Source: a virus. Taken from it: a stretch of 64,000 nt of DNA. The stretch lies in IMG/VR virus record IMGVR_UViG_3300002855_000001, positions 1 to 64,000 of that record; one strand, 5' to 3'. A program made the position numbers and the translations under genes. Of this stretch, positions 8,683 to 51,326 are shown piece after piece (position 1 is the first letter of the stretch; each line of letters begins with the position of its first letter). The notes under the pieces are model-generated. The model searched no databases, was not told the DNA's origin, and saw only the letters and a list, made by a program, of their open reading frames with translations.

Positions 8683-8720
8683 TATATAAAAACTAAACAA
8701 AATTTGGAGGAATTAATAAT

Positions 8721-9176: not shown

Positions 9177-9226
9177 TAAAAACTAATATATAAAATTTTA
9201 CATAAAAGAAAGAGGTTAATATATTT

Positions 9227-24885: not shown

Positions 24886-25500
24886 GTGATTAAAATTACA
24901 ATTAAAGACTCGCTTTATTTCTCATTCAATGGAATTCAATCAAAAGAACTTTATATGATGAACGTTAATCCAGATGGTGGAATGCAAGAGGAGTATTTTG
25001 CAGCGTCTCAATCTATCGTAGAAAACAAAACTAGAGGTCGGAATAAACCCTACTTTCATGGCTTAGAGAAAGAACCAATTAATCTGACAGTTAACTTCGC
25101 TTTTGAAAATGGATGGGATAAAGAGGAACTTAGAAAAATACGCAGATGGCTGACCTCTCCAAAATATTATGCACCTCTAATTTTTTCAAATGAGCCAGAG
25201 AAAATATACTATGCCCTATATATTGATGAGCCAGTTTTGCTTCATAATTCAATGTCACAAGGATATATCACTATTCGATTCAGATGTAATGGATGCTATG
25301 CGTACACACCATTAATGACAACCCCTGAGTATACATGGACTGATACTGACCTAAATGTAAATGTAACTAACTTCTCCGTGGGTGAACGTGTTAATGTTAC
25401 TTTGACATCTGGAAATAAGATTCAATTAAATAGTGCTGATAAAAAATGGTCTGACATATTGGCTGGCAATAAAACTTGGTATCAATTATTTAATGAATGA
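24886..25500 (+). CDS. distal tail protein (Dit / siphovirus tail-component family), N-terminal part
   Basis: Directly after the TMP. FSFNGIQSKELYMMNV and RKIRRWLTSPKYYAPLIFSNEPEKIYYALY match the usual Dit pattern. Confidence 0.55.
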   Translation: MIKITIKDSLYFSFNGIQSKELYMMNVNPDGGMQEEYFAASQSIVENKTRGRNKPYFHGLEKEPINLTVNFAFENGWDKEELRKIRRWLTSPKYYAPLIFSNEPEKIYYALYIDEPVLLHNSMSQGYITIRFRCNGCYAYTPLMTTPEYTWTDTDLNVNVTNFSVGERVNVTLTSGNKIQLNSADKKWSDILAGNKTWYQLFNE

Positions 25501-25515
25501 AAGGCGGTGCAATAA

Positions 25516-26151
25516 TTGGCATTAACTACTACTAAATTACAATTGGTTAGACCTGATATAAGTGATTTTGGTGCACAAACACTGATTGACTTAGCTAACA
25601 ACTTTCAAAAACTGGATGATACGTGTAGTGCGCTTGGAACAGGTGAGCCTGTAAATGGATATTGGAAAGCTGGTAGCAAGGTAGATTATACTAATCCAGT
25701 TGCAGGTGGATATGTGGGGCTTATCAATCTACGCAGTGGGATGGCTGCACCTAAATGGTCTGCATTAAAGCAGTTCAACGTTGGAGACTTAATATTACCT
25801 AATACAAATAATGGTCATTATTATACTTGCACTCAATCAGGCACTAGTGCACCACTAGAACCACAATGGCTAGTAGCAGCTCAAACTGTTACAGAAGATA
25901 CCCGTGGTAAAACAACTTGGCAACCTTCTAAAAGTTATAAGCTTCATGATGTTGTTGTTCCAAGTGTGCCTAATGATAGATTCTATGTTTGTGTTACAGC
26001 AGGTACTTCAGGTATTACTCAACCTGCATGGTCAACAACAAATGGAATTGCGACAACAGATGGACAAGTTGTTTGGCTGACCTATCGGATTGTAAAGTGG
26101 AAAGAATCAGGCGTATCCATTAATTTTAGACCATATGGAAAAATTGAGTAG
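25516..26151 (+). CDS. tail protein with two CBM5/12-like carbohydrate-binding repeats
   Basis: The repeats W..LKQFNVGDLILP...GHYYTCTQSGTSAPLEPQW and W.PSKSYKLHDVVVP...DRFYVCVTAGTSGITQPAW resemble chitin-binding type-3 modules. Confidence 0.4.
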   Translation: MALTTTKLQLVRPDISDFGAQTLIDLANNFQKLDDTCSALGTGEPVNGYWKAGSKVDYTNPVAGGYVGLINLRSGMAAPKWSALKQFNVGDLILPNTNNGHYYTCTQSGTSAPLEPQWLVAAQTVTEDTRGKTTWQPSKSYKLHDVVVPSVPNDRFYVCVTAGTSGITQPAWSTTNGIATTDGQVVWLTYRIVKWKESGVSINFRPYGKIE

Positions 26152-26160
26152 GTGTGAATT

Positions 26161-26802
26161 ATGGCTAAAACATGGGCAGATATAATAGGAAAAAGTGGGT
26201 ATTACCAGTCTAATCCAATACTATTGAATGCTGAGGGAAATGGTTCACTTTCATCTGTTACTTGGGATGGAACGACAACCAGTAACAACAAGATAAGATT
26301 ATTCACTTCGCTATCCTTTAACGGTGGCTACGACTGGACTGAATGGAAAGAAGTACAAAAAAATGCAAGCGTCCCCGACCTAAAAGTAGAAACTCCTTTG
26401 AATAATGTTTATTTACGCTACAGGGCGTTTTTAGAAACAACCATTTTAACTGAAACACCCATATTAAACTCAGTTACTTTCAGTTTTGAGCCTGTTCTTG
26501 TAATTGACAATATAGGGGACGATGTTTGTTACCCTGAAGTTTGGATAACTAAAACAGGCGCAGGTAATATATCTTTAATCAATACAAGCAATGACAATGA
26601 AGAGTTTGCATTCACTGGATTAAACAGCACTGAAACAGTCTACATAAATAATGAACGTGAGTATATAGAATCTAGCTTGGCCATGACTACTAGATATAAA
26701 AATTTCAATGATAATTACATGCAATTACCAATAGGTAAAAATGTATTCAGAATTAACGGTAAAGCAAAGTTGCAATTTCGTTTTCAGTTTCCATTAATAT
26801 AA
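26161..26802 (+). CDS. tail protein resembling the C-terminal half of Dit
   Basis: IDNIGDDVCYPEVWITKTGAGNISLINTSN..FAFTGL..TVYINNE resembles the C-terminal beta-sandwich of Dit proteins. Confidence 0.4.
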   Translation: MAKTWADIIGKSGYYQSNPILLNAEGNGSLSSVTWDGTTTSNNKIRLFTSLSFNGGYDWTEWKEVQKNASVPDLKVETPLNNVYLRYRAFLETTILTETPILNSVTFSFEPVLVIDNIGDDVCYPEVWITKTGAGNISLINTSNDNEEFAFTGLNSTETVYINNEREYIESSLAMTTRYKNFNDNYMQLPIGKNVFRINGKAKLQFRFQFPLI

Positions 26803-26832: not shown

Positions 26833-29800
26833 GTGTTAGGAGATATAGACTATAATTTAAAGCCGATAGAACCTAAGATTTTTTTACACAAACCGAATGA
26901 AGAATATGTTGGTAAACTATCAGAGGCTTATAATATAAATCGAAAAACTTCTTTAACCGAGCTTTTTTCGCTATCCTTTGAATTGCCGTATTACGTAACA
27001 GAGAATAACCAACTTGTTCGCAATAGAAACATTGATTCAATTAAAGATCGATACTATGTAAAAGTTGTGATTGGTGCAAAAGTTGAATGGTATATCATAA
27101 CAAAAATTACTGAATCAATGAGCGATAGTGGAAACAGCAAAAAAGTTGAATGCATTTACTTACCACAAGAATTGAACGATAAAAATATTAGCGCATATAC
27201 TGCTGAATCCAAACATGCTGGACAAGTATTGAATGACATTCTATCATTAACAGCACTGTGGTCAGTAGGTTCGATTGATCCTGACTTCCTGCTTTCATAT
27301 CGTTCTTGGGAATTTCCAGATAGCACATTGTTAGATGCTATTTTCAAAATAGCAGAACGATACAATGCAATCATTGAATGGGATACTGTTAATCGTAGTT
27401 TTGACTTCGTAAAACCTGAACTTCATGGGCAGAATCGATTAGGAACAATATCACATCGTAAATGGCTAAAAACACTGGAGAAAGAGAAGAATAGTGAAAG
27501 AGTAATTACAAGAATTGTGCCTAAAGGTAAGGACGGTTTGGGTATCCAAAGATTGACTACAAATGGTGCTAATTACATTGAAGACTTTAGTTATTGGATG
27601 TTCCCATTTGAAAGAGATGCAAACAAAAATTTAATTAAACACAGTGATTACATGAGCGATAGCTTGTGTCATGCTATACTTGATTATCAAGATAAGGCTA
27701 AATCACTTGATGGTCAGTATAAAAACTTATTAGTACAGATGGACACTCAAACAAAATTACTTGCTCAAAAACAAGTTGAATTAACAACTCTGAAGAATCA
27801 AATGTCTGAAATTACACAGATTCAACTTGCACAACAATTTGATGAAGTCATGTTTTTCGATAAATCTCAATATAGTGGTAGCTCTAAGACTGTTAACTTT
27901 GATGTTAATAGTCTTTATTTATATGCTGTTTTGATTAAAGTTGGAAACGCAACAGGAAAAACAGTAGTGATCAATGGCTCAACTGGTACATTAAGAAGTG
28001 GCGAATGGGTAGTAGCTAGAAAAATTAATAAAGGTGCTTCCAATATCTCTGTAGGCATTACTGGCTCTGGTGCTACAGAAGTTTTTATTCAAGTTGCAAA
28101 CATTAGTCAAAGTGAGTACGACACAGCTAATAATAGCTATGAAATTGTTAATAAATACAACTTTGATAATAAACAAGCACAGATTACTGCAAAAGAATCA
28201 GAGATCGTTACAGTACAGAATGCGATTAAAAACATTCAAACTCAAATGAGCAATATTAATACTCAACTTTCTGCTGTAAACAACTTTACCCAAGCACAAA
28301 GAGAAGAGTTAGATCGCTATATTCTTCATGAAAATTTTAGTGATGACACTTTAATAGATGATGAAGACTTATTAGAGGAAACTAAAAAAAGATTCGACGA
28401 GTTAAAGATTCCGCAGCTACATATGAATGTTTCCATTGAAAACTTCTTGACTCTAATTGAAGAACAGAGAAATTGGGACAAGCTAATTCTTGGAGACAGG
28501 ATTATAGTTAAATATGAGCCATTTGATTTAAAGATTGAAGCCAAGATTATTGAAATTGAATTTGATTATGAAAACGATGATATAAAATTAACAATTGCTA
28601 ATTTTAAGAATCTTAATACCAATGAAGAAATGCTTTATAAATACATTTACGATTCTAAAAATACGACAACCATTGTTAATGATGATAAGCATAAATGGAA
28701 TCAGTCTCTTGTTGATACAAGTGACATGAGCAAACTGTTTGATAATTTTTGGGATAAAGTTACGAATCAGATTAACATGGCGATCAATCAGACGGTAGAT
28801 ATTAATGATGCAGGTATCACTGTGATCGATCATAATGATCCACTTAGGTTTATTCGTTTGACGAATGGGGCAATTGGACTTACTCGCAGTGGTGGATTAC
28901 GCTATGAAACTGCGTTGACAGCCGATGGAATCATTGCTGAGATGATATTAGGTAAAATTTTACTCGGCAGTAGAGTGGTTATTGGTGATGATGACGGTAT
29001 ATGGATGACTGAAGGTGCAAAAACAACGATTACTGACCGTTGTGGTAGAGTTGCAATGAAACTTGGGCTATATGAAGAAAATCCTGACTTATTTGGCATG
29101 GTTATTAATCGCTATAATGACATAATTCCCTGCTCTCCCGAGCTGCTTAATAAAATTATTGCTAACTCAGAAGATGGTTTCAAGATTCAACAGTGGAATG
29201 GTTCACAGTTTGTAGACAAATTTTCGATAGATAATAACGGTTTTTTACAGGCAGTCGATATGACTGCAAAGCGTTTAACTATTAAATCAGGTGAAGATGA
29301 ACTACTTCTTGATAGTTATACAAAGTACATGGACATCGGTAAGTTTGAAAACATTATCATGGATGGTAAACTGACAGCTATTGAGAAATTACAAGTACTG
29401 GGTGAACGCACTCGCATTATTTCTGAATATGACAAACTACTAAGTCAAGCAATTGCTTACAAAACAACAACCAGGGATTCGTCCATTCGCATTGATACTA
29501 CCAATTTTACTGATAGTTACTATGATCTGATGGACTATCTTGCACCTTTACTTGCAGATATGGAGGCTACAACTAATATTGATCGTGATGAATTTATCAA
29601 TAAGTTCAAAGCCTATTATGATGAAGTCACAAATATTATCAATGCTATCAATGATTCTATTAAATATTCGAGTGTTCAATTTGGTCAAATGTTCAACCAA
29701 ATAATTATCGATTACATAAATGGGATCACCGCAACTCGAAGTGACACAAAATTTCGCTCGATCATGAATGCTACTCGTGGTTTTATTATTCAACGTAACG

Positions 29801-31494
29801 ATGGCACAGTTCAGAACCCCATTTGGACGGATATTTTTTATGCTGATATTTCTGGGAATCTTGTTGCCCAAAATATGACTGCAAAAAGTCTAAAAATCGT
29901 TTCCGATACTGATGAGTTACTACTCGATGGAAACTCAAAATACATGGATATTGGTAAATTCGAGAATATAATTATTGACGGCAAGTTGACTGCTATTGAA
30001 AAGTTGCAAATTCTAAGTGAGCGTACACGCATTGTTTCCGAATATACTAAGCTACTCACTCAAGCTCACGAGTATGCAACATCAGATCGAGACGACTCCA
30101 TTCTAATCAATACTACTAATTTTACTAAAGTATATGAAGCACTAATTAATTATCTCGCACCTTTATTGGCTGACATGGATGTGACTTCAAATATTGATAG
30201 AGATGTATTTATTAAAAGGTTTAAGGATTACTATGATGAAGCTACTAATATTATCAATGCAATTAGTGACTCGTTAAAGTATTCGAGCGTACAATTTGGG
30301 CAAAAATTCGGAAATAATGTCTTAATCGATTATATTATGGGCGTTGTCGCCACAAGAAGTGATAATATGTATCGCTCAATTATGAATGGTACTCAAGGCT
30401 TCATAATTGAACAGAATATTGGAACTTCAGCTAATCCGAATTGGAAAAGAGTGTTTTGGGCTAATACTTCTGGTATTTTGCATGCCCAAGGTCTGAGAAT
30501 AGCAGAAGGCTTGTTCAGTGAAGGTGGCATTGAGAATTCCTACTTAATACTTCGTGACAACTTTGGAGGTATAGGAAAGTGGTTTCCAACATTGGGGCTT
30601 TTCATGGGAGCAGAGCAGCCTGAAGACAGTGGTTTTTGGGTTACGCCTGATGGGAAACTTAAGATTAAAGGTAATGCAGGTGCTGTTTTCATTGACACAG
30701 AAGCAGGTTATATGGACATGGGAAATCTTGAAATTCGAGGGGTCTCAAGAATGTCTGGCGATACTATTACAGTCAACAATGTGATTGCTGGGAGCGGTTT
30801 CATAAACAGATTAACTGTTGACAAGCTCATAACGTATGGCAAAAAAGAAGAGCTTAATCAAGTAACTGATTACATACATGTGCAGGACAATTACTTCACA
30901 TTGAAGACAGGAAGGATTACCAATAGAACTCAGACTGTCGTCAATGGAAAACCTTTGTATTGGACTAACGCCTCAAAAACTACAGCAACAGAGGAAGTCA
31001 CTCCTTATCCAATGTGGAACTTGGAAATCGATGATATAACTAAATTTATCATCGACCACAAAGGAACTGGCGATACAGCATATCCACGAATAGCTTTAGG
31101 CAGAGGTGACGGAGTAATAAAAGATCCATGGGTTGCAGATGAGCACATTGTTGACGACCCATCCAAACAGAATATTAAATCAGGTAGAGGATTCATTGAA
31201 AAACCAAATGGTAGCTTTGATCAATACTATTTCAATACATCGTATGGTAGAGAACGGAGTGTTAGACTTAAAGACGATGGTATATATCTATTCTCTGAAA
31301 ACGGAGATATTGACCAATATGCCAAAAATCTAAACTTTACTATTGACGGTGGTAAACTTAATATTACAAATTTGACAGGCACAAAGATTACTATCGACAC
31401 TTCTGGAAACATGGGAATAGAAGTCGCAGGAAATGTAAACGTAAAAGCAACAGGCTCAATTAATTTTGAAGGAAACTCATATAATTTTGCGTAA
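26833..31494 (+). CDS. tail-associated lysin-like / minor structural protein (Tal), 1553 aa
   Basis: GTG start with SD GGATGGTG. The N-terminus resembles the prophage-tail endopeptidase/Tal family. Contains coiled coils and a large internal tandem duplication. Confidence 0.65.
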   Translation: MLGDIDYNLKPIEPKIFLHKPNEEYVGKLSEAYNINRKTSLTELFSLSFELPYYVTENNQLVRNRNIDSIKDRYYVKVVIGAKVEWYIITKITESMSDSGNSKKVECIYLPQELNDKNISAYTAESKHAGQVLNDILSLTALWSVGSIDPDFLLSYRSWEFPDSTLLDAIFKIAERYNAIIEWDTVNRSFDFVKPELHGQNRLGTISHRKWLKTLEKEKNSERVITRIVPKGKDGLGIQRLTTNGANYIEDFSYWMFPFERDANKNLIKHSDYMSDSLCHAILDYQDKAKSLDGQYKNLLVQMDTQTKLLAQKQVELTTLKNQMSEITQIQLAQQFDEVMFFDKSQYSGSSKTVNFDVNSLYLYAVLIKVGNATGKTVVINGSTGTLRSGEWVVARKINKGASNISVGITGSGATEVFIQVANISQSEYDTANNSYEIVNKYNFDNKQAQITAKESEIVTVQNAIKNIQTQMSNINTQLSAVNNFTQAQREELDRYILHENFSDDTLIDDEDLLEETKKRFDELKIPQLHMNVSIENFLTLIEEQRNWDKLILGDRIIVKYEPFDLKIEAKIIEIEFDYENDDIKLTIANFKNLNTNEEMLYKYIYDSKNTTTIVNDDKHKWNQSLVDTSDMSKLFDNFWDKVTNQINMAINQTVDINDAGITVIDHNDPLRFIRLTNGAIGLTRSGGLRYETALTADGIIAEMILGKILLGSRVVIGDDDGIWMTEGAKTTITDRCGRVAMKLGLYEENPDLFGMVINRYNDIIPCSPELLNKIIANSEDGFKIQQWNGSQFVDKFSIDNNGFLQAVDMTAKRLTIKSGEDELLLDSYTKYMDIGKFENIIMDGKLTAIEKLQVLGERTRIISEYDKLLSQAIAYKTTTRDSSIRIDTTNFTDSYYDLMDYLAPLLADMEATTNIDRDEFINKFKAYYDEVTNIINAINDSIKYSSVQFGQMFNQIIIDYINGITATRSDTKFRSIMNATRGFIIQRNDGTVQNPIWTDIFYADISGNLVAQNMTAKSLKIVSDTDELLLDGNSKYMDIGKFENIIIDGKLTAIEKLQILSERTRIVSEYTKLLTQAHEYATSDRDDSILINTTNFTKVYEALINYLAPLLADMDVTSNIDRDVFIKRFKDYYDEATNIINAISDSLKYSSVQFGQKFGNNVLIDYIMGVVATRSDNMYRSIMNGTQGFIIEQNIGTSANPNWKRVFWANTSGILHAQGLRIAEGLFSEGGIENSYLILRDNFGGIGKWFPTLGLFMGAEQPEDSGFWVTPDGKLKIKGNAGAVFIDTEAGYMDMGNLEIRGVSRMSGDTITVNNVIAGSGFINRLTVDKLITYGKKEELNQVTDYIHVQDNYFTLKTGRITNRTQTVVNGKPLYWTNASKTTATEEVTPYPMWNLEIDDITKFIIDHKGTGDTAYPRIALGRGDGVIKDPWVADEHIVDDPSKQNIKSGRGFIEKPNGSFDQYYFNTSYGRERSVRLKDDGIYLFSENGDIDQYAKNLNFTIDGGKLNITNLTGTKITIDTSGNMGIEVAGNVNVKATGSINFEGNSYNFA
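29260..29874 (+). repeat. tandem duplication unit 1 inside the Tal gene (about 205 codons)
   Basis: MTAKRLTIKSGEDELLLDSYTKYMDIGKFENIIMDGKLTAIEKLQVL... is repeated in unit 2. Confidence 0.85.
29875..30492 (+). repeat. tandem duplication unit 2 inside the Tal gene
   Basis: MTAKSLKIVSDTDELLLDGNSKYMDIGKFENIIIDGKLTAIEKLQIL... is collinear with unit 1 along its whole length, with many synonymous differences. Confidence 0.85.
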
Positions 31495-31503
31495 ACTAGT
31501 GAA

Positions 31504-31560
31504 ATCCTTCCAATTGTGTGTTACACTAATATAAAGAATAAAATATAAAATTGGAAGGAT
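31504..31560 (+). promoter_or_regulatory. 12-bp perfect inverted repeat able to sequester the SD and start of the ankyrin gene
   Basis: ATCCTTCCAATT (31504-31515) and AATTGGAAGGAT (31549-31560). The right arm contains the SD GGAAGG and the first ATG. Confidence 0.5.
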
Positions 31561-31567
31561 GAATTAT

Positions 31568-32290
31568 ATGAGTTCAAAATTAAAGCATAAGGCACAACTG
31601 GCAATAGCTTTTCTATGTGGGGCGTTTCTCTTTTCTGCGGCAGGAGCTTACGCTGCAACAGAGATAATTGCAAAACAATCATCTTATAAAGTTAAAGTTG
31701 ATGGAATTGAACAAAAGCTATCCAACAAACCAGTTACTATTAATGGAAGTGCTTATCTGCCAGTTCGTGAAGTTGCTAGTATTACAGGCTATGACGTTAA
31801 ATTTGATGGTAAATCAGGCACTATTAATTTACTTGGAGAAGGCTACGTCGAATCTTCCGCTGAAAAAACAAGCAATCCAAACAAGGATGGAGTATATGTG
31901 AAAAACCTAAGCACTAAGTACAACAACGATAAAGATCAACTAGACGCTTCTCTGCTAAAGGAAGCTATCAAATCAGGAGAATTGAATGTAAATGCCCAAG
32001 ATCAAGACACAGGAGAAAGTTTATTTCATCTTGTGATCAAACAAAACAATTTTCCTGCTTATGAAGTAATTAAAGCAAATAAGATTAATCCCAGCCTGAA
32101 AGACAATGAAGGGTTGACACCTTTACATGTTGCAGTGATCGAGGAAAATAGCTTTTACTATGGTGAATTAAAAAATGAATTCAATGTCAAGCAACACAAG
32201 GATAACAGTGGAAAATATCCAATTGACTATGCAGGTGGAGTCTCTTCGACTTTTCATCGCTCGTTGTTACATGTAGATAAAGCTGAGTGA
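31568..32290 (+). CDS. secreted protein: signal peptide + Cu-amine-oxidase-N-like wall-binding domain + ankyrin repeats
   Basis: LAIAFLCGAFLFSAAGAYA signal peptide. VTINGSAYLPVREVASITGYDVKFDGKSGTINL matches the endolysin C-terminal repeats. GESLFHLVIKQNN and GLTPLHVAVIEEN are ankyrin-type. The track start 31559 abuts the SD, so ATG 31568 is preferred. Confidence 0.6.
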   Translation: MSSKLKHKAQLAIAFLCGAFLFSAAGAYAATEIIAKQSSYKVKVDGIEQKLSNKPVTINGSAYLPVREVASITGYDVKFDGKSGTINLLGEGYVESSAEKTSNPNKDGVYVKNLSTKYNNDKDQLDASLLKEAIKSGELNVNAQDQDTGESLFHLVIKQNNFPAYEVIKANKINPSLKDNEGLTPLHVAVIEENSFYYGELKNEFNVKQHKDNSGKYPIDYAGGVSSTFHRSLLHVDKAE

Positions 32291-32381
32291 TTGATCAAAA
32301 CAATAATTCAATTATTGACCACTTTTCACAAATAAGGTAGAATTGTGTAGATTTTACTTTATAAAACGAGGAGTGGTCTTT

Positions 32382-33014
32382 TTGGATAATTTAGAACTTG
32401 GCTCAGAAGAAATAAACAGCAATCCAGCATCGGTTAAAAAAACAAACTGGTTAAGAATCAGTGTTCGTTTTATTGCAGTTTTACTAATTTTAGGTTCAAT
32501 CTTTTTTGTGTACAACAAATTTCTATCAGAAGAAGCAAAAGTAAAAAGAGTAGTAGCCAAGTATGTAAAAGCAATTCAACGTGGAGAAAGTACTTATGAT
32601 TACAAGAAAAGTCTTTCCATGGACGATTTTATCGATATTATTGATTATAAATACATTCGAGTAGTATCCAAAGAGAAAAGAGAAGTTACTCTAACAGTTG
32701 ATAGAAAAATGTACGATAGCTATGTTAAATATGAAATAGGCTCTGCTAAGGATTTTGACACTTTTGAAGAATTTTTCGAACACGAAAGAAGTGAAGCAGC
32801 GAAGAGAGAAGCGCAAGAAAATACTAAGTATGAAGTTTTATACGAAACCGATTCCTCGTTCACTTATACTTGGGGGAGTACATATGACGAATATGAATTA
32901 CTTTATGACATGCAATTGACCAATGGTTTGGGCGGTTTAGTTTATAAAAAAGTGTACTTTACTATAGATAATGAAGAGCGTGACACCTTTAAGATTTCGA
33001 GCACATATTATTAA
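32382..33014 (+). CDS. membrane-anchored protein, paralog of 35551-36138
   Basis: One N-terminal TM helix (WLRISVRFIAVLLILGSIFFVY). Shares the motifs KYVKAIQRGES and VYFTIDNEE..FKIS with the paralog. TTG 32382 lies 8 nt after the SD GAGGAG (track start 32343). Confidence 0.55.
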   Translation: MDNLELGSEEINSNPASVKKTNWLRISVRFIAVLLILGSIFFVYNKFLSEEAKVKRVVAKYVKAIQRGESTYDYKKSLSMDDFIDIIDYKYIRVVSKEKREVTLTVDRKMYDSYVKYEIGSAKDFDTFEEFFEHERSEAAKREAQENTKYEVLYETDSSFTYTWGSTYDEYELLYDMQLTNGLGGLVYKKVYFTIDNEERDTFKISSTYY

Positions 33015-33057
33015 ATATCACTGAAGTATCATTATTAGGCAATTAAATATCAGCAAT

Positions 33058-33095
33058 AAAAAGAACTCATTCTGCATTGAATAGAGTTCTTTTTT
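33058..33095. terminator. bidirectional terminator between convergent genes
   Basis: A-run, AAGAACTC...GAGTTCTT stem, T-run. Lies between 32382-33014 (+) and 33147-33329 (-). Confidence 0.7.
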
Positions 33096-33146
33096 ATATT
33101 TACTTTTTTATCACTTTAATGAACTATTGATACTTTGTAAAAACTA

Positions 33147-33329
33147 TTATTTTTCATTTTTGGGAAGAACACCGATTTCTTTAAAGTAAAGATCAAAAGC
33201 GTTATCAAAAAGCCTAGATTTTGTTATCCCAGTTTTTTCGGAATACTCATCCAGTAATGTGTATAAATCATTTCGTAGTGTATTTGTGAATTGCACTCGG
33301 CTTTTAAGTTTTTTCTTGCTCATGTGCAT
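33147..33329 (-). CDS. ribbon-helix-helix (CopG/Arc-like) DNA-binding protein, candidate repressor
   Basis: Beta strand SRVQFTNTL followed by two helices (RNDLYTLLDEYSEKTG, TKSRLFDNAFDLYF). SD GGAGG. Divergent from 33518-34519. Confidence 0.55.
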   Translation of the reverse strand: MHMSKKKLKSRVQFTNTLRNDLYTLLDEYSEKTGITKSRLFDNAFDLYFKEIGVLPKNEK

Positions 33330-33360
33330 TAACCTCCATTAACTATAATTGACTTCATTT

Positions 33361-33389
33361 ATCATAACATAAAAACAAGGAATGGTAAA
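33361..33389 (-). promoter_or_regulatory. candidate sigma-A-type promoter for the RHH gene
   Basis: On the minus strand: -35 TTTACC (33384-33389), 17-nt spacer, -10 TATGAT (33361-33366). Confidence 0.4.
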
Positions 33390-33400
33390 ATATCAAAATA

Positions 33401-33460
33401 TCAAATGACTGTAATTATGTATAAATAAAAATAATTATTTATACTTGAAGTCAAATGACT
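33401..33460. repeat. operator-like repeats in the divergent control region
   Basis: Direct repeats TCAAATGACT at 33401-33410 and 33451-33460 flank the palindrome GTATAAATAA-N6-TTATTTATAC (33419-33444). Confidence 0.6.
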
Positions 33461-33473
33461 CCAATGATATAAT
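33445..33473 (+). promoter_or_regulatory. candidate sigma-A-type promoter for 33518-34519
   Basis: -35 TTGAAG (33445-33450), 17-nt spacer containing the second TCAAATGACT copy, TG-extended -10 TATAAT (33468-33473). Confidence 0.55.
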
Positions 33474-33517
33474 CGTCTCAAGAAACAATAACATTTGTAT
33501 TATAAGGAGAGATGATT

Positions 33518-34519
33518 ATGTTGCAACAAGAACAATTGTTAGAATCAGTGGAACTGAGAAACAAAATGATCCAAAACACTAGTGTACTAGATAAGGTGAA
33601 AATCTTATCAATGCTTCCTAACGGTGAGCATTTGACAACAATCATGATTGCCCACTATTACGAAGTGAGCGAAGAAGTTATTAATATGGTTGTAAAACGA
33701 CACAGAGACGAATTGGAACTAGATGGGATGGAAGTTGCGTCAGGGGAAAGACTAGTGTACATAAAGTACACTTGTGAAATGAAGTCAAATAAGGCACGAC
33801 AAATGATCATATTCAACCGCAGATGTGTCTTACGTATTGGAATGTTACTACGTGATAGTAAAGTTGCAAAGCAGCTCAGAACCTATCTTCTTAACATTGA
33901 AGAACAAGCGACTCAACAACAAAAATCAAAAGCAACAAGAGGTAGTCGATGGGATGGTAAAGACTTGATTCTATATGATCGAATTGTTGTGGGTATTAAC
34001 GAAGGAAAAACTCTCAGTCAAATCTGTGAAGAGGTAGCTCCAACAATTAACGAAACCTCAACAGCTTGTAGAAACAGATACACACAAAAAATTAAGACAA
34101 TGATTTCTAATAAAGAGTTAGTTACTAAGATAGAGAGTAATCGAGGAAGCCATCTTCGTGTAGTCGAAACGAAAATAGAGAAAAATGATACACCTGCTGA
34201 TGCTCGTGGTATCGAAATACCAACTTGGGCTGAAACTTATCTTAATCATGTTGTCCAGATGAACATTGAAACCAATGAGTTAATCAAAAAAGCAAATGAT
34301 GATCTAAAAGAATTAACTGAAAGTAAGATAAGCAATTTAGAGGAGTTATTACAACAAAAAACCGAAGAACTCAAACTTGTAAAATCTCGTAATAGAAAGT
34401 TGGCTGAAGAGCTTAAACAAACAAGGGCAGTAATTGCTTCTGCTGTAAAAATTGGTGTAAACGAAACTATCCAACAAACTTTCAAAATGAGCAAAAATGG
34501 GAACTTGGAACGATTGTGA
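33518..34519 (+). CDS. DNA-binding regulator: anti-repressor/ORF6N-like N-terminus + RsfA-type Myb-like domain + coiled coil
   Basis: HLTTIMIAHYYEVSEEVINMVVKRHRDEL resembles ORF6N/Ant-type domains. RWDGKDLILYDRIVVGINEGKTLSQICEEVA...TSTACRNRY resembles the RsfA Myb-like repeat. Second ATG 33518 is preferred over 33512. Confidence 0.5.
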   Translation: MLQQEQLLESVELRNKMIQNTSVLDKVKILSMLPNGEHLTTIMIAHYYEVSEEVINMVVKRHRDELELDGMEVASGERLVYIKYTCEMKSNKARQMIIFNRRCVLRIGMLLRDSKVAKQLRTYLLNIEEQATQQQKSKATRGSRWDGKDLILYDRIVVGINEGKTLSQICEEVAPTINETSTACRNRYTQKIKTMISNKELVTKIESNRGSHLRVVETKIEKNDTPADARGIEIPTWAETYLNHVVQMNIETNELIKKANDDLKELTESKISNLEELLQQKTEELKLVKSRNRKLAEELKQTRAVIASAVKIGVNETIQQTFKMSKNGNLERL

Positions 34520-34608
34520 ACTGTCGAACGATTTACATATGAGGCAATGTCTCAAGCGGTAACTGATCATTAATTCTCAAAATCAAAGAAAGTTGAGGGA
34601 TATGTATC

Positions 34609-35022
34609 ATGAATAGTAACGTACATCTTCAGCAAGTTTATGAATTAAATCAGCAGTTTGTCAGTTCTAATAAAAATTTCAAATGGGATTTTATTGAACA
34701 AGTTCTAGCTATATTGCCTAAAATTTCGGAAGATGTTGAGACTTCAACAATGCTCGTTAAGCCAATTTATGTGTATTATTTCTTTAATTCGGAGGGAGAG
34801 TGTTTATTTGAACTTACTGATGATGAAGAGGTTGCGCAGCAAAGCGGTGAAGAATATGAAGTCGCAAGTTTAGAGCAATTGAATGAGAATCTTGGTAATG
34901 GAAATGATGATGTTTATCAAGGGATACTGTTCACGTCTGACGGTTTATGTGAATACATTGAAGACGTTGTATATTTTAATGGCTGCACAAAGATTACTAA
35001 GTGTGAGTATAAACCTATTTAA
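34609..35022 (+). CDS. small strongly acidic hypothetical protein
   Basis: SD GAGGGA. 137 aa with Asp/Glu-rich stretches (TDDEEVAQQSGEEYEVASLEQLNENLGNGNDD). Confidence 0.65.
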   Translation: MNSNVHLQQVYELNQQFVSSNKNFKWDFIEQVLAILPKISEDVETSTMLVKPIYVYYFFNSEGECLFELTDDEEVAQQSGEEYEVASLEQLNENLGNGNDDVYQGILFTSDGLCEYIEDVVYFNGCTKITKCEYKPI

Positions 35023-35026
35023 CCTT

Positions 35027-35061
35027 AAAGCTAGCAAGAGCTAATTTCTTGCTAGCTTTTT
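35027..35061 (+). terminator. intrinsic terminator
   Basis: Perfect 12-bp stem AAAGCTAGCAAG/CTTGCTAGCTTT followed by a T run. Confidence 0.75.
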
Positions 35062-35144
35062 CAAAATAAAGTAAACTAGTCAAAACGAATTAATACTAAA
35101 TGTGTTCTAATCAATAAAAAATGTTAGCAGGGAGATGTTGACTA

Positions 35145-35372
35145 ATGTGTAACGAGGATAAGACAGACACATCAACACTACAAGATAAACTCAAAGTAGC
35201 TAATGATAAAGTTGATGCACGTATTGATGACATTTGGGCTGAAGCTGAAGAAAATCTTCGGAAGCTTGCAAACAAAAACACTAAAAAGAATGAACAAGGG
35301 CAAACAGTTTTATCTTCAGATAGTCCATATCGTAAGGAAGAAGGATGGGAATATTCAACTAAAGATGAATAA
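35145..35372 (+). CDS. small hydrophilic hypothetical protein (75 aa)
   Basis: SD GGGAG about 10 nt upstream of the ATG. Normal residue composition, unlike the overlapping minus-strand 152-aa ORF. Confidence 0.4.
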   Translation: MCNEDKTDTSTLQDKLKVANDKVDARIDDIWAEAEENLRKLANKNTKKNEQGQTVLSSDSPYRKEEGWEYSTKDE

Positions 35373-35461
35373 CGTATATCAAATCCTGTGAACTTCCTAT
35401 TGATTACAATGACAAATAGAAACTGGGGTAAACATGAATAGATAAGGCTATTTGCATTTGA

Positions 35462-35544
35462 TTTAGATAATATTTTACACTTCCTTAAAAATTTACAAGG
35501 AAAACCTCTCAATATGTCGAATTGATATGAGACTAAGGGAGGAG
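35462..35544 (+). repeat. conserved promoter/leader element, copy A (upstream of membrane-protein paralog)
   Basis: The first 18 nt, TTTAGATAATATTTTACA, are identical to copy B, and roughly three-quarters of the whole element is identical by eye. Contains TAGATA-16 nt-TAAAAA, anti-SD CCTCTC (35505-35510) and SD AAGGGAGG. Confidence 0.6.
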
Positions 35545-35550
35545 AACAAG

Positions 35551-36138
35551 ATGTCGAGTGCATTTTCAAAAACGGTTAACAGAAAAGGTATTCTTTTGGG
35601 GTTGGTGGGGTTTGTTATATTGGTGCTGGCTGTTTGTTTGTATTTCATAAACTCTGCTTCTTTCGAACAGCAGTCTAAAAAACTTGTGCATGGCTATTTA
35701 AAAGCAGTTCAAAACAAAGATACAGAAAGAGCAAAATCAATGATAGATGAATTTGTTGACGACTTGAGGGATGTTAATAAATTCAAGTTCAAAGAAGCAT
35801 TGGATTATCAAGTAGTTGACAAGACTAATGTCATTAATGAGGAATTATATAGATTTTATAAAGATAACAATAGCTCGACTGTAAAATACTATGATAACTT
35901 TGAACAATTTTATCAAAGTGAAACTGATAAGATCAAAGAGATGGCAAAAATCAATCCGAACTTCAAAGTTATTCGTGACGAAGAAAACGAATTTGTTTAC
36001 ACCAATGGAAAACCTTATGAAGAAATAGCAATTGTTTTTGAGGTGGGCTTTCTAGAGGGAGTTGGAGATATAGTATATAGAGATGTTTATTTTAACGTTG
36101 ATGACAAAGATGGGCTTAAAATCACATTGATTTATTAA
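35551..36138 (+). CDS. membrane-anchored protein, paralog of 32382-33014
   Basis: TM helix GILLGLVGFVILVLAVCLYFI. Motifs GYLKAVQNKDTERAK and VYFNVDDKDGLKITLIY parallel the paralog. The track start 35527 lies upstream of the SD AAGGGAGGAG, so ATG 35551 is preferred. Confidence 0.55.
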   Translation: MSSAFSKTVNRKGILLGLVGFVILVLAVCLYFINSASFEQQSKKLVHGYLKAVQNKDTERAKSMIDEFVDDLRDVNKFKFKEALDYQVVDKTNVINEELYRFYKDNNSSTVKYYDNFEQFYQSETDKIKEMAKINPNFKVIRDEENEFVYTNGKPYEEIAIVFEVGFLEGVGDIVYRDVYFNVDDKDGLKITLIY

Positions 36139-36360
36139 TTAGCTTTAAGTTTTGTAAAGAATGAAGTTATTGACACAGAAACACGATACCTATCATCTGA
36201 TCAATTAAGTCCTAACGAACAGAAACAATTTGAAATTATTTCAAAATATACGAATGAAGTATCTAACTTCAGAGTTGAGATATCAGACTATATGTTTCAA
36301 TAGAATAATTCTCTGAAATGCTTGAATCTAAGTATATCTACTTATATAACATAATGAAAT

Positions 36361-36440
36361 TTTAGATAATATTTTACATTTTTCTAAAATTAACAAGGAA
36401 TTCCTCTTTTTGTGTCGAAAGTAGTAGGACTAAAGGGAGG
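36361..36440 (+). repeat. conserved promoter/leader element, copy B (upstream of NYN gene)
   Basis: Collinear with copy A: TAGATA-16 nt-TAAAAT, ACAAGGAA, anti-SD CCTCTT (36403-36408), TGTCGAA, GACTAAAGGGAGG. Confidence 0.6.
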
Positions 36441-36453
36441 TATTTATCAAAAA

Positions 36454-37221
36454 ATGAAAAATGTAGCAATTTACTGGGATTTTGACAACATTCAACTTAG
36501 TATTCAGAGGCATTATGGACAATCTGCTGAAAACATAGCTAAGTTGATTCAGAAAATCGAAGAAATCTATTCTAATGACTCAATTCGAATTCATAAGGCT
36601 TTTGCTGATTTTGAAAAAATCACTAAAACTCAAACGGATTTACAAAAGAAGAAAGTAACCCCTATCCATGTATTTAGTAGCAACTCTGGTAGCGAATCTA
36701 GAAAAAATGCCAGCGACATCGAGTTATGTTTAGATGTTCTAGAAACTGCTCTGACTAACGAAGATATCAACGAATTTGTAATTGTATCTGCTGACAAAGA
36801 TATGATCCCTCTATTATCAAAGCTAAGGTATCATGGTAAAAGAACATTCTTAATTTACTTGGATAAAACTATTGCTGAAGACAAATTGCTAATCAATTTT
36901 GCTAACCAATCAAGCTCGATTGAAGAGTTAATTGAGATGAAGCTGCCTGACCCAAGTGAATTAACAAGAGAAAAAATAGAGGCTTATTCAGAAGAAATAG
37001 TGAATATTGCAACTGCATTTTTTGACAGAAATAAATTTAAGCCTACCATCTTCTTAGGCAAGACAGTTTTTGTTAAAGAGATTACTGACAAAATAGGTCT
37101 ACCAGTGGAGATTGTCGAGCAAATTATTACTCATTGTATAGACACAGATAAACTAACTTTAGTTGAATTTGATGGTGGTAAGATCAAATACGAATTAGCA
37201 AAAAAATTAACAGTGGTTTAA
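36454..37221 (+). CDS. NYN-domain (LabA/DUF88-like) putative ribonuclease
   Basis: VAIYWDFDNI, IRIHKAFADF, ASDIELCLDVLE and FVIVSADKDMIPLLSKLRYHGKR match the NYN/PIN-like acidic motif order. ATG 36454 follows the SD AAAGGGAGG (track start GTG 36412 lies upstream of the SD). Confidence 0.65.
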   Translation: MKNVAIYWDFDNIQLSIQRHYGQSAENIAKLIQKIEEIYSNDSIRIHKAFADFEKITKTQTDLQKKKVTPIHVFSSNSGSESRKNASDIELCLDVLETALTNEDINEFVIVSADKDMIPLLSKLRYHGKRTFLIYLDKTIAEDKLLINFANQSSSIEELIEMKLPDPSELTREKIEAYSEEIVNIATAFFDRNKFKPTIFLGKTVFVKEITDKIGLPVEIVEQIITHCIDTDKLTLVEFDGGKIKYELAKKLTVV

Positions 37222-37230
37222 TTCTATTGA

Positions 37231-37259
37231 TTGACAACAAATGTTAAAAGTGGTATCAT
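37231..37259 (+). promoter_or_regulatory. strong sigma-A-type promoter
   Basis: -35 TTGACA (37231-37236), 17-nt spacer, TG-extended -10 TATCAT (37254-37259). Confidence 0.6.
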
Positions 37260-37265
37260 TGACTT

Positions 37266-37355
37266 ATCAAATTCAGATTGTTTTTCATTTTTATTTCAGT
37301 TTTGGTTTCAGGGTTAGTTTCAGATAGAATCCGACTTTTCAATCGGATTCTTTTT
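37266..37355 (+). ncRNA. candidate short terminated leader RNA (about 90 nt)
   Basis: Predicted from the promoter at 37231-37259 to the terminator at 37326-37355. Contains four TTCAG motifs (37272, 37295, 37307, 37319), the last three spaced 12 nt apart. No ORF. Confidence 0.4.
37326..37355 (+). terminator. intrinsic terminator 1 upstream of the receptor-binding cluster
   Basis: AGAATCCGA/TCGGATTCT 9-bp stem, 8-nt loop, then TTTT. Confidence 0.7.
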
Positions 37356-37408
37356 CATTTTACAGGCATATTGTTTGTTTTATAGAACTAAATACATACT
37401 AATAAAAC

Positions 37409-37432
37409 GACACTTTCATAGTGTCTTTTTTT
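37409..37432 (+). terminator. intrinsic terminator 2 upstream of the receptor-binding cluster
   Basis: GACACT/AGTGTC stem, loop TTCAT, then a run of 7 T. Confidence 0.55.
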
Positions 37433-37460
37433 GTTTTAAATAAAAATTTGAGGTGGTTTT

Positions 37461-37934
37461 ATGGCTAATGTGGCTGTAAATGGCTCGGAAATTACACCTG
37501 CTACAAAATCAGGACATGTTACCTATGATATTGAAAGATATGTTTGTGTTGACTGGGATGAAGAAACGGGAGAGTGCATAAGTCGTAGTTGGAGAGGTGA
37601 TGGCTCTGGATCAACAGGAGCTAAAGTAACAACGGGAACAATTTCTGCAAACTCTAAAATGAAAATCAATGGTACGAGTGTAGCAAAAGTAGGGGATACA
37701 GTTAACTACAGTTGGGTTGCCGATCCACCAGTTCCCAGTAACACCACAAACACAAGATATGTAAACATTTCTCCAGCAACTTCAGGGAGTGGCACAGGAA
37801 CGATCACAGGTGGCAGCAACAAAGGAAAGCTTGGTGGTCAATCCATTGCCTTAGTAGGAAGTGAAGTTTCGTTGGACATAGGAGTGACAACAACAATTTC
37901 TGATGGCGTATCTAAAATGAAATTCAATAGCTGA
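37461..37934 (+). CDS. Gly/Thr-rich beta protein with PAAR-like repeats (possible spike-tip protein)
   Basis: SD GAGGTGG. The repeats VNGSEITPATKSG, INGTSVAKVGDTV and LGGQSIALVGSEV resemble PAAR-type strands. Confidence 0.3.
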   Translation: MANVAVNGSEITPATKSGHVTYDIERYVCVDWDEETGECISRSWRGDGSGSTGAKVTTGTISANSKMKINGTSVAKVGDTVNYSWVADPPVPSNTTNTRYVNISPATSGSGTGTITGGSNKGKLGGQSIALVGSEVSLDIGVTTTISDGVSKMKFNS

Positions 37935-37947
37935 GGGAGGTGAATAA

Positions 37948-39120
37948 ATGCCAAATTTAAGAACATATCTAGAGTATAATAATCCACTAGCCATCATTTA
38001 CAGAACGGGGAGTACAGACGACCCTTTTGTACCCAGAATTAACAGTATGCCCGTAATCAATAATTTGATCACATTATTAGAAGTTCCTTCTGAGGCTCAC
38101 GGTGTACAGATAGCAGGATTTACTGAGATAACCAGAGATAAATATGATAGAACATTATTTATAGGTGAGAATGAGTTTCTTGTAAACTACTCTATTGGTA
38201 ATATTCAATTTAATCCTATTCATGATGGTAAAACATTTACTTGTTCTTTCATGTCTCGCGGATTAATTATGTACCCAGCATCAAGAATTTACACATTAGC
38301 AAGAGAAAATCCAGATATAGTTGTAACATTGCAGGACTACATAGATTCCCTTAATAATTATCAGAATGTTATTAATCTTAAACTAGATGAAATTAATAAG
38401 GCAATTACTCGGTCTATTGAGACTACAAATGATGCTAATGCTGCGATAGACAATGCTAATATTGCAACAAAGGATGCCAAAGATGCAACCAATGCCGCAT
38501 TAGAAGCTGCTAGAACAACATATACAATCAGAAAACCCCCAGTGGATGAATATAAAGATTTGGCAACTACCTACCCTAAGCCTGAAAACGGGTGGCAGGT
38601 TACGTTAAATACCACAGGTGATATTTATCGTTTTAATGGGTACTCAGGCCAGTGGGAACTGGTGGGCAATTTAATTGGTGGTGCGATCCCATATGCTTCA
38701 GAAGTGTCGGATGGAATTATTAAAAAGGAAGATTATAAAAACTTCGTAACTAGACCTGCATTCTTTAGTGTCCAAAAAGTGCTATCCCAAGGTGTCCAGC
38801 CTGTGGGATTTTTTCGTATGCCATCTGATGGACAAATACTTGCAGTAGAGGCTTATTGCACAGAGGTTGGATTAGTTAACTCTACAGAGATATCAATTGA
38901 TCGCATATCTAGGTATGACCTTGAAAACGGTGGTAGTTGGGACAATATTTTTTCAAAGAATTTAATTATTTCACCGAGAAGTCCAATATCTACAGGCGGT
39001 ACTATTGCTGATAAAATTGCAATGAAAGATGATCTTTTTAGGGTGAATATATCGCAGTATGATGATGCAGTTAGAGGAATCTCAATAGTGATGACAATTA
39101 ACACTACATACACAGAGTAA
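37948..39120 (+). CDS. tail-fibre / baseplate-like structural protein with central coiled coil
   Basis: SD GGGAGGTG. Central Ala/Asn-rich heptads (NDANAAIDNANIATKDAKDATNAALEAA) and a beta-rich C-terminus. Confidence 0.4.
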   Translation: MPNLRTYLEYNNPLAIIYRTGSTDDPFVPRINSMPVINNLITLLEVPSEAHGVQIAGFTEITRDKYDRTLFIGENEFLVNYSIGNIQFNPIHDGKTFTCSFMSRGLIMYPASRIYTLARENPDIVVTLQDYIDSLNNYQNVINLKLDEINKAITRSIETTNDANAAIDNANIATKDAKDATNAALEAARTTYTIRKPPVDEYKDLATTYPKPENGWQVTLNTTGDIYRFNGYSGQWELVGNLIGGAIPYASEVSDGIIKKEDYKNFVTRPAFFSVQKVLSQGVQPVGFFRMPSDGQILAVEAYCTEVGLVNSTEISIDRISRYDLENGGSWDNIFSKNLIISPRSPISTGGTIADKIAMKDDLFRVNISQYDDAVRGISIVMTINTTYTE

Positions 39121-51305: not shown

Positions 51306-51326
51306 ATGTGTAGAGGGAGTGTTTTT

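Follow-up and report, generated by a model that had tools for sequence, protein, structure and literature searches.

Why should a temperate phage carry eight genes of apparently non-structural nature among the genes that build its tail tip? The locus that raises this question lies within the first 64,000 nucleotides (nt) of the IMG/VR virus record IMGVR_UViG_3300002855_000001 (the window, meaning here the whole stretch analysed), where about 6 kb (31495-37460) with eight open reading frames (ORFs; g1 to g8) separate the gene of a Tal/YomG-like tail-tip protein from those of a PAAR-like and a YomF-like protein in what is, judging from its genes, an SPbeta-like temperate siphophage of Paenibacillaceae/Bacillales. 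We regard this region as variable accessory cargo with high confidence, and as probably a composite island of the moron type, put together from independently mobile units at the Tal-PAAR junction of SPbeta-like phages and having the module functions proposed below. The ORFs, their flanks and an RNA-like gene are the following, the starts having been chosen by inspecting the sequence for ribosome-binding sites (RBS):

26833-31494, + strand: Tal/YomG-like tail-tip protein, 1553 amino acids (aa), upstream flank (TIGR01665, phage tail spike, E 4.6e-13)
31559/31568-32290, + strand: g1, predicted secreted ankyrin protein, likely start ATG 31568
32382-33014, + strand: g2, single-pass membrane protein
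33147-33329, - strand: g3, ribbon-helix-helix (RHH) protein, the sole reversed gene
33518-34519, + strand: g4, regulator-like protein with an ORF6N-type domain
34609-35022, + strand: g5, acidic protein
35145-35372, + strand: g6, small hydrophilic orphan, 75 aa
35551-36138, + strand: g7, paralogue of g2
36166-36303, + strand: ORF remnant of 45 codons, lacking a start context
36454-37221, + strand: g8, NYN-domain protein
37231-37361, + strand: small-RNA-like gene attached to g8 (promoter, repeats, terminator)
37461-37934, + strand: PAAR-like protein, downstream flank
37948-39120, + strand: YomF/BppU-N-like baseplate protein, downstream flank (phrog_11315, E 2.5e-104)

An initial annotation, made from the letters alone, had stated that non-structural genes interrupt the late tail region after Tal, and eight ORFs, one of them reversed, were indeed found there. 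Its domain calls (signal peptide, ankyrin and wall-binding parts in g1, paralogous membrane proteins, RHH, acidic protein, NYN) were all reproduced, and the terminators it had placed in the island were recovered as hairpins outscoring shuffled sequences (z to -4.7). Its view of the genes as moron-like cargo, not virion genes, likewise stands, since relatives lack the island or carry different cargo at the junction; the comparison of synteny across related phages, which it had suggested, revealed an island that is variable, with Tal joined to PAAR in the closest relative with context (locus L011; compared loci carry an L number throughout) and in the phages Sundance and Perkons.

The relatives were found through the YomF-like protein, for which a single sequence was uninformative and an alignment query required. 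It ties the window to Brevibacillus phage Sundance, Psychrobacillus phage Perkons and the SPbeta group, its closer relatives being Paenibacillus prophages. Sundance and Perkons have a PAAR-like gene 4-20 bp after the Tal equivalent, with the YomF-like gene next in line; in L011 (YomF 81% identical), a 66-bp spacer lies between Tal and PAAR and the island is absent. Among the 36 loci tabulated at the Tal-PAAR junction, 15 hold a PAAR-size gene alone and 11 more hold PAAR together with relocated Dit-like structural genes. L012 (YomF 78%) carries a 2.4-kb island in which homologues of g1 and g2 are joined by a small ORF and a RelE-like gene, L013 (YomF 54%) a Cu_amine_oxidN1 protein and a PemK/MazF-like toxin, and in the remaining Paenibacillus loci a g1-like gene always comes first, followed by varied cargo. 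Across the relatives this cargo includes PemK/MazF-like toxins (three loci), a Ser/Thr kinase, multi-pass membrane proteins and an antirepressor, the last being a true P22_AR_N+ANT gene in L035. Two further junctions may be mentioned: the kinase of L016 is accompanied by a 162-aa protein (6445-8009), and in L045, a metagenome-assembled genome of Vallitalea, a putative radical-SAM-like protein of 447 aa lies beside a Cys-rich repeat protein of 332 aa (5978-8989). To judge from these sequences, the Tal|PAAR junction is a recombination-prone hot spot for cargo.

The limits of the inserted segments can be drawn with the help of the hairpins of the region:

33058-33094, no strand assigned: bidirectional terminator-like hairpin between the convergent g2 and g3 (z -2.2)
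35027-35059, + strand: strong terminator after g5 (-18.8 kcal/mol, z -4.7)
37326-37351, + strand: terminator hairpin of the g8-linked RNA element, followed by a U tract
37409-37432, + strand: backbone terminator-like hairpin, GACACT...AGTGTC and a T run, just 5' of the PAAR-like gene (stem-loop 37409-37425, z -3.6)

The terminator hairpins after g2, g5 and g8 clearly outscore shuffled sequence. The backbone hairpin also stands between Tal and PAAR in the island-free L011; cargo therefore inserts between the Tal stop codon and this hairpin. DNA similarity with L012 runs from Tal through g1-g2 to 33017, just upstream of the 33058-33094 hairpin, stops there and resumes at 37399; the intervening 4.4 kb (g3-g8) are unique to the window, and L012 has a 0.9-kb RelE-like module instead. 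The base composition follows suit to a modest extent, with a guanine-plus-cytosine (GC) content of 0.323 in the island (0.319 in the unique part, 33018-37398) against 0.350 upstream and 0.358 downstream. Two of the marks in a Hendrix-type definition of a moron were thus found, namely presence in some genomes and absence from close relatives with conserved gene order, and a composition unlike that of the neighbours. Of a third mark, a promoter and terminator of its own, the island shows the terminator hairpins, together with promoter-like sites of 10-11/12 matches at intergenic positions, whose overall number equals chance.

Within the island, the modules have separate distributions: g1 occurs alone in L020 and L043, and g1 with g2 but without g3-g8 in L012; L048 has g3/g4 but not g5-g8, while in L049/L050 the pair lies apart from g1 (the L047 sequence ends after g4); NYN homologues occur without any other island gene in eleven loci. 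The initial annotation had treated the genes as one combination; instead, there are at least four modules, and on the sequence comparison the island is a patchwork of independently distributed parts and not one system. The 45-codon remnant, for which a family search gave no match, is probably the relic of an earlier cargo gene. The remnant and a region of about 90 nt that is duplicated upstream of g7 (35462-35550, copy A) and g8 (36361-36453, copy B), at about 75% identity, are best read as scars of earlier rearrangements. An 18-nt motif within this region, TTTAGATAATATTTTACA, has exact matches in the window just at 35462 and 36361; it had been considered as a phage-wide promoter and was rejected, as it occurs solely at the g7 and g8 upstream sites. 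In L007 a related ...CCTCTT..TGTCGAA.. stretch precedes the NYN gene, and the duplicated region may be a shared operator or leader of g7 and g8.

The module that most deserves attention is the last one. The NYN domain of g8 scores far above the gathering threshold (PF01936, E 6.8e-22; 79 bits against a cut-off of 24.2; phrog_21480, E 4e-38), and D9, N12, D88, D94, D114 and D116, conserved acidic active-site residues among them, are invariant among the homologues (n=13). It is followed by a C-terminal domain of about 95 aa; close homologues (29-52% identity) match over the full length including this domain, and a weak match to the MARF1 NYN domain was obtained in the Protein Data Bank (PDB). 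The settings of these homologues vary widely. L005 is an integrative and conjugative element (ICE)-like element, and in L006, a Bacillus chromosome, the gene adjoins a type I restriction-modification (R-M) system; in L007-L010, which are other SPbeta-like phages, it precedes terS, and in L134 it stands between the tape-measure region and Dit. Brevibacillus phage Jimmer1 (L004) has it behind its lysis genes, L135 is an Alicyclobacillus plasmid, and L051, L053, L131 and L164 are metagenomic and viral contigs.

In the initial annotation g8 was a lone RNase; instead, it appears as one half of a two-part unit, whose other half, a repeat-RNA-like gene directly downstream and inside the same island, had not been noticed. 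In the window this element begins with a promoter-like site at 37231-37259 (TTGACA-17-TATCAT with TG, 11/12 consensus matches, against 9/12 for the best site 5' of g8), continues at 37272-37331 with about five tandem 12-nt units with the core TTCAG (TRF period 12; lag-12 autocorrelation 0.62 against 0.41 in shuffles, p<0.001) and ends in the terminator. The arrangement is conserved: in 11 of 12 homologous loci, which are related, so that these counts are not fully independent, an element on the same strand overlaps the NYN stop codon or begins no more than about 25 nt behind it, for example at 9815-9973 in L004, 10766-10900 in L005, 10769-10910 in L006, 10790-10910 in L007 and 1358-1490 in L134. 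Its promoter is near-consensus, with at least 10/12 matches in at least eight loci; four or five tandem units of 12-14 nt follow (two in L135), and the last unit usually runs into the intrinsic terminator that closes the element. Among 64 generic NYN genes taken as a control, one had a promoter at least as good after the stop codon and none was periodic (Fisher p 2e-7).

The core motif differs between loci, being TTCAR in the window and its closest homologue L134, TTTCY..AAG in L005 and L051, ATCAA in L006 and L007 and ATTCGYT in five members of a distant clade. It follows protein relatedness for the TTCAR, ATCAA and ATTCGYT groups; the exception is L005 (TTTCY), whose protein is closest to that of the ATCAA-type L006 (66%), which means that the motif changes quickly in the first clade. 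Every copy has the orientation of the coding strand, and none lies outside the element, in particular none 5' of the NYN gene. The element is unlikely to be a leader, since the genes downstream are unrelated between loci and the next gene is convergent in L006. Rfam gave no family for it, nor any match elsewhere in the window at the gathering threshold or in the island at E<=1. Small ORFs within the element were rejected as coding, as they lack an RBS and are not conserved, and an antisense pairing of the RNA with the NYN start, as in type I systems, was dismissed, cognate duplexes being no better than shuffled or non-cognate ones. In Jimmer1 the element overlaps the annotated 53-aa coding sequence gp41, which is probably a mis-annotation. 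A reverse search of IMG/VR with the ATTCGYT motif was noisy, most of its 119 matches being unrelated coding repeats; an NYN gene lay upstream in 2/119, one of them new (L164).

On balance we favour the view that the downstream element is a functional partner RNA of the NYN protein. The strongly transcribed, unstructured RNA of about 95 nt would be abundant, would offer about five short tandem motifs to be bound, and perhaps cut, by the NYN protein, and would in this way restrain a weakly expressed endoribonuclease; should host transcription collapse, as it might when another phage infects, the labile RNA would be lost and the RNase set free. We propose by analogy that the unit would work like a type III toxin-antitoxin (TA) or abortive infection (Abi) system, or as a CsrB-type sponge. 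That the pair is a TA/Abi device at all is a more tentative suggestion than the partnership itself.

Type III TA systems comprise ToxIN, CptIN and TenpIN, the ToxI repeats being 36 nt long (PMC3401426). The NYN unit resembles them in that an endoribonuclease gene is linked to promoter-driven tandem direct repeats bounded by an intrinsic terminator, in its occurrence on phages, plasmids and chromosomal islands, and in the co-variation of repeat sequence and protein. Several points nevertheless weigh against equating the two, or against the proposed partnership in general. g8 is an NYN (PIN-like) protein and has neither the ToxN fold nor homology with ToxN, CptN or TenpN; the repeats, about 12-14 nt long, are much shorter than the 36 nt of ToxI, and the 12-nt units are unable to form pseudoknots; and the repeats lie downstream of g8 with their own promoter, no terminator standing between repeats and toxin. 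Moreover, L052 has no clear element after its NYN gene. Judging from these differences in toxin fold, repeat length and position of repeats and terminator, the unit is type III-TA-like and not a member of the class; in the literature we found no paper linking NYN proteins to type III TA or to phage defence.

Known RNAs that sequester proteins or are bound at repeats include CsrB/RsmZ with CsrA, and the GAG/UAG repeats bound by TRAP. A short RNA with closely spaced core motifs of 5-7 nt, otherwise unstructured and with a terminator at its end, is common to these and to the element described here; unlike them, the partner would be an RNase encoded immediately upstream, which shows no homology to CsrA or TRAP.

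The same repeats could be viewed in a different manner, as iterons or operators in DNA for the C-terminal domain of the NYN protein, or as an attenuator of downstream genes. Protein-controlled attenuators are known from the trp leader with TRAP and from hut with HutP. Direct repeats with a period of roughly 12 nt right after a promoter could well be protein-binding sites in DNA, a repeat array followed by a terminator has the layout of such attenuators, and in several loci a second terminator and a downstream gene do follow. Against this stand the downstream genes, different in every locus and convergent in L006, the lack of the motif 5' of the NYN gene, the place in which autoregulation would call for an operator, and the restriction of all repeats to one strand, with the last unit entering the intrinsic terminator in most loci. 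We therefore consider the DNA or leader explanation unlikely and retain the partner RNA as the preferred reading of the element.

At the opposite end of the island, the first gene shows a different kind of conserved arrangement, for which three further features are needed:

31504-31560, + strand: hairpin with the g1 Shine-Dalgarno (SD) sequence GGAAGGA in its 3' arm and an AT-rich loop
32315-32343: promoter-like site 5' of g2
46973-47755, + strand: endolysin with Amidase_2 and a C-terminal Cu_amine_oxidN1 module

The g1 protein has an N-terminus resembling a signal peptide (MSSKLKHK...AGAYA|A), predicted to be of the Sec type, one Cu_amine_oxidN1 domain (E 1.5e-8) and about three ankyrin repeats, the latter firmly matched by designed ankyrin repeat proteins (DARPins) in the PDB (E 9e-14). 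Its wall-binding part and the C-terminal module of the endolysin are of the same domain type, which hints that both proteins bind the same wall component; the two copies are just 27% identical. Likewise, g1-like genes come first after Tal in 12 other SPbeta-like loci, and all proteins inspected have N-terminal hydrophobic signal sequences. Tandem arrays of g1-like genes follow Tal in L026 (five copies, 4403-9344) and L018 (three copies, 3494-7224, interleaved with duplicated PAAR-like and Dit-like fragments). Within these arrays the wall-binding part is better conserved than the ankyrin part (95% against 67% identity in L018, 74% against 66% in L026).

The hairpin between Tal and g1 places the SD in the 3' arm of a stable structure of the longer transcript (minimum free energy -19.4 kcal/mol, z -4.4; 0/200 shuffles as good). 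In g1-like loci the SD is fully paired in 9/12 cases, compared with 3/39 control genes of the window (Fisher p 1.3e-5), and paired at some or all positions in 11/12. Such Tal-g1 spacers were found in the window and in L012, L013, L016, L018, L020, L026, L031, L035, L043 and L044. The sequence of the hairpin differs in relatives (for example CCGATATAGT...ACTATATCGGAGG) while the SD-sequestering pairing persists, and the changes in the arms are for this reason compensatory. A -10-like box lies in the loop of the window hairpin (TGtTACACT, a weak match), and boxes reading TATAAT, TATAGT, TATACT or TACAAT lie in the 5' arm or loop at most loci.

Such an arrangement would hide the RBS of g1 in late read-through transcripts, whereas a host-type promoter in the hairpin loop would give rise to a shorter transcript with an exposed RBS, the sole form to be translated. 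In phage T4, gene e (lysozyme), soc and I-TevI are reportedly controlled by an RBS-sequestering hairpin with an internal promoter, as McPheeters et al. 1986 and Gott et al. 1988 are said to have described. The two cases share an SD buried in a hairpin of the long transcript and an internal promoter-like box that would yield a shorter, translatable transcript without the 5' arm; they differ in that the timing would be reversed here, with a host-type promoter serving in lysogeny or early infection against late read-through, and the g1 promoter is a consensus match only.

Once made, g1 would be exported by Sec, anchored to the wall via its endolysin-type domain and display its ankyrin repeats, which would mask or capture something that incoming related phages need, leading to superinfection exclusion or to protection from lysis from without. 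Its neighbour g2 is a single-pass membrane protein (N-in) with one N-terminal hydrophobic helix, a topology shared by its paralogue g7 (27% identity over 182 aa, E 2e-20), and together g1 and g2 would form a surface module that obstructs related phages in their adsorption or entry, or lysis from without, by analogy with exclusion genes placed beside adsorption genes such as sieA of P22, llp of T5 and cor of phi80. We put exclusion by g1/g2 forward as no stronger than a working idea, somewhat less likely to be right than wrong. The family to which g2 belongs is a rare one, with 69 representative clusters among 1.84 billion proteins; the L012 homologue is 90% identical, and 15/38 family members have an N-terminal zinc ribbon. 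No Pfam family covers the g2 ectodomain, and Foldseek of its AlphaFold2 (AF2) model (predicted local distance difference test, pLDDT, 64.8) against the PDB gave nothing better than E 1.7.

Lambdoid morons are found in tail regions, and receptor-blocking genes such as llp of T5 and cor of phi80/N15 are placed next to receptor-binding genes. In common with these, the island contains putative independent units with promoter-like site and terminator between structural genes, is present in some relatives and missing from others, has a slightly different AT content and encodes a surface protein beside the adsorption apparatus. It differs in being a 6-kb patchwork of several modules and not a single gene, and g1 is a predicted Sec-secreted ankyrin protein with an endolysin-type wall-binding domain and not a lipoprotein.

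Between these two modules lies a regulatory one, whose control region is organised as follows:

33361-33473, no strand assigned: divergent control region with promoter-like sites back to back (g3 site 33389-33361, TG-extended; g4 site 33445-33473, 10/12, TG) and a 21-nt direct repeat at 33401 and 33451

g3 is an RHH protein of the Arc/Mnt type (RHH_3, E 2e-10; phrog_3180, Arc-like repressor, E 1.7e-9). g4 consists of an ORF6N-type N-terminal domain, an RsfA/YlbO-like (Myb-type) middle and a coiled-coil tail (YlbO E 1.5e-6; phrog_2657); ORF6N is annotated in 4/17 family members, and the same type of N-terminal domain is fused to ANT/KilAC or HNH in other proteins. PADLOC (PADLOC-DB v2) gave a partial match of residues 17-134 to the candidate PDC-M59A (E 1.7e-14). 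A PDB sequence search found nothing for g4, and its family profile just coiled-coil and marginal Myb matches. Full-length g4 homologues are always divergent from a small DNA-binding gene and located within SPbeta-like tail modules, and the cassette recurs in three other phage lineages (four loci, L047-L050). Two of the loci have it at the Tal-PAAR junction: in L047, Tal and a Cu_amine_oxidN1 protein precede helix-turn-helix (HTH) and RHH genes divergent from g4, the RHH being 71% identical to g3; L048 has the order Tal, g1-like gene, T5orf172 gene, HTH divergent from g4, 104-aa ORF, PAAR; in L049/L050 the RHH-g4 pair is directly upstream of the tape-measure gene. Judged by this recurrence, g3 and g4 are a conserved two-gene regulatory cassette, in which the g3 repressor and the divergent g4 regulator, together with g5, would form a switch.

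A comparable situation exists in phage P22, in which the sieA-mnt/arc/ant (immI) region is situated between ejection-protein genes and the tailspike gene 9. The adjacency of sieA, orf59a and mnt, and the properties of SieA, have been described (PMC10883804). In both phages accessory genes that vary between relatives interrupt the late operon between DNA-delivery or tail-tip genes and receptor-binding genes, and a membrane (exclusion) protein is combined with a reversed RHH repressor gene and a divergent antirepressor-type gene. Unlike P22, the island has no sequence homology to SieA and belongs to a Gram-positive host; the Arc/Mnt-type RHH gene of an immI-type module is present, whereas g4 has ORF6N and an RsfA/Myb-like region in place of P22_AR_N or ANT (KilAC). 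The call of g4 as an anti-repressor in the initial annotation is thus right for the type of its N-terminal domain only, and the Myb-like call holds, the YlbO/RsfA-like match extending over the C-terminal half. P22 possesses nothing that corresponds to the secreted wall-binding ankyrin protein or to the NYN-RNA unit.

Co-oriented with g4, g5 (137 aa, pI 4.05, 25 D+E against 7 K+R) had been thought a possible DNA mimic; this found no support, as profile, PADLOC and PDB sequence searches gave no family or homologue and its AF2 model is unusable (pLDDT 43.6). g6 has no family matches either, and g6 and g7 are orphan cargo.

How far, then, does the overall interpretation carry? The sequences show the anatomy, the identity of the domains, the variable junction, the separate distributions of the modules and the conservation of hairpin, cassette and NYN-RNA arrangement; the biochemical and phenotypic steps named so far we infer throughout. 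Taking g8 and g1 together, we suggest tentatively that NYN proteins with their C-terminal domain and downstream repeat RNA represent a new class of protein-RNA TA/Abi systems, and the Tal-adjacent ankyrin family new exclusion proteins of Gram-positive hosts; in this class a PIN-like/NYN RNase would act as toxin and a short multi-motif 'sponge' RNA, transcribed from a strong promoter of its own, as antitoxin, and the module would move among phages, ICEs, plasmids and defence islands of Bacillota. Several observations speak against reading the island as defence or exclusion cargo. None of the island proteins could be assigned to a validated family of defence, exclusion or anti-defence proteins; for g2/g7, g5 and g6 neither homologues nor folds are informative; the promoters were called by their match to the consensus, and promoter-like sites overall are at chance (35 against 33.4 expected), with four of the five best (at least 10/12 matches) in or at intergenic positions; and the genes could act in the lytic cycle and not in the lysogen.

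This last possibility can be spelled out: the island genes would serve host takeover or counter-defence, with the NYN protein degrading RNA of the host or of a competitor and g5 inhibiting host defence. The location in the late region, where read-through from Tal is possible, the strong acidity of g5 and the place that NYN homologues occupy in other phages, immediately before terS or behind the lysis genes, agree with it. The four terminator hairpins on the + strand, the reversed gene and the promoter-like sites of host type do not, nor does the predicted sequestration of the g1 SD in precisely those read-through transcripts; the NYN-RNA unit furthermore occurs outside phages (in an ICE-like element, on a chromosome beside type I R-M and on a plasmid), and relatives' cargo at the same junction is of TA type. 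A lytic role is accordingly rather improbable. A single integrated defence system of surface sensor, regulator and RNase effector might be imagined from the contiguity of the eight genes and the duplicated upstream region shared by g7 and g8, and is very unlikely considering that each module has its own distribution across loci and that PADLOC found no complete defence system in the island and nothing for g2, g5, g6, g7 or g8, in agreement with the initial annotation, which could match no described system. That the genes are conserved virion or assembly components, as their position inside the tail module and the frequency of g1-like genes beside Tal might suggest, is least probable of all, given their absence from L011, Sundance and Perkons, the Sec signal peptide of g1, the membrane location of g2 and g7 and the lack of any match to a structural PHROG category.

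The surroundings of the island complete the picture of a moron-type patchwork within a large siphophage. The late region has about 34% GC, and + strand structural genes span from about 350 to 47,755, the last being a holin-like gene followed by the endolysin. A blastn search of 31000-38000 against 50,697 phage records returned zero matches, an exact-sequence look-up of g8 (ATG start) and of the PAAR-like protein found neither on record, and a tRNA scan found none. Tal, whose homologues bear YOMG_N and Prophage_tail, contains an internal tandem duplication of about 205 aa (29260-29874 and 29875-30489, 52% identity), and two copies are also visible in L011 and L012 as double blastn matches. Three Dit-like genes (about 205-213 aa) precede Tal in the window (24886-26802); in distant Paenibacillus prophages (L021, L027-L030, L033, L040-L042 (about 7500-10000), L034, L036 and L038) a Dit-like trio stands between Tal/PAAR and YomF, a relocation which, from the gene orders compared, is a permutation of the tail tip.

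A tyrosine recombinase (Phage_integrase, E 3e-7; 16582-17586) is encoded inside the tail module shortly upstream of the tape-measure gene, with a 370-aa zinc-ribbon-like protein (17591-18703) between the two. In L049/L050 the RHH-g4 cassette adjoins the recombinase at the corresponding position, and this site looks like a second hot spot for cargo. 3' of the lysis genes, a ParA-type ATPase, a DnaD-N-like protein and a 1352-aa PolIII-alpha (PHP, NTPase, finger and HHH) are encoded (51306-52235, 49799-50188 and 55285-59343); with these genes and a viral sequence of 180.5 kb, the phage may be replicated or partitioned in the manner of a plasmid prophage.

As a moron island, the region is a familiar kind of thing; what is novel are the NYN-repeat-RNA unit, the Tal-adjacent family of secreted ankyrin proteins with its SD-occluding hairpin, and the recurrent cassette of RHH and divergent ORF6N/Myb genes in tail operons. 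If the NYN-RNA pair is a TA/Abi system, RNA antitoxins would reach beyond the ToxN fold and beyond a search layout with repeats upstream, and the unit would explain genes that are annotated just as 'NYN domain-containing protein' or 'hypothetical'. The hairpin of g1, with its apparent (predicted) translational silencing, illustrates in a small space how an essential operon can harbour a moron and yet avoid its mistimed expression. The Tal|PAAR junction of SPbeta-like phages, finally, is a site at which TA, kinase, antirepressor and surface-protein cargo is exchanged, and as such a hot spot it is a place to mine new defence and exclusion genes in spore-forming Bacillota.

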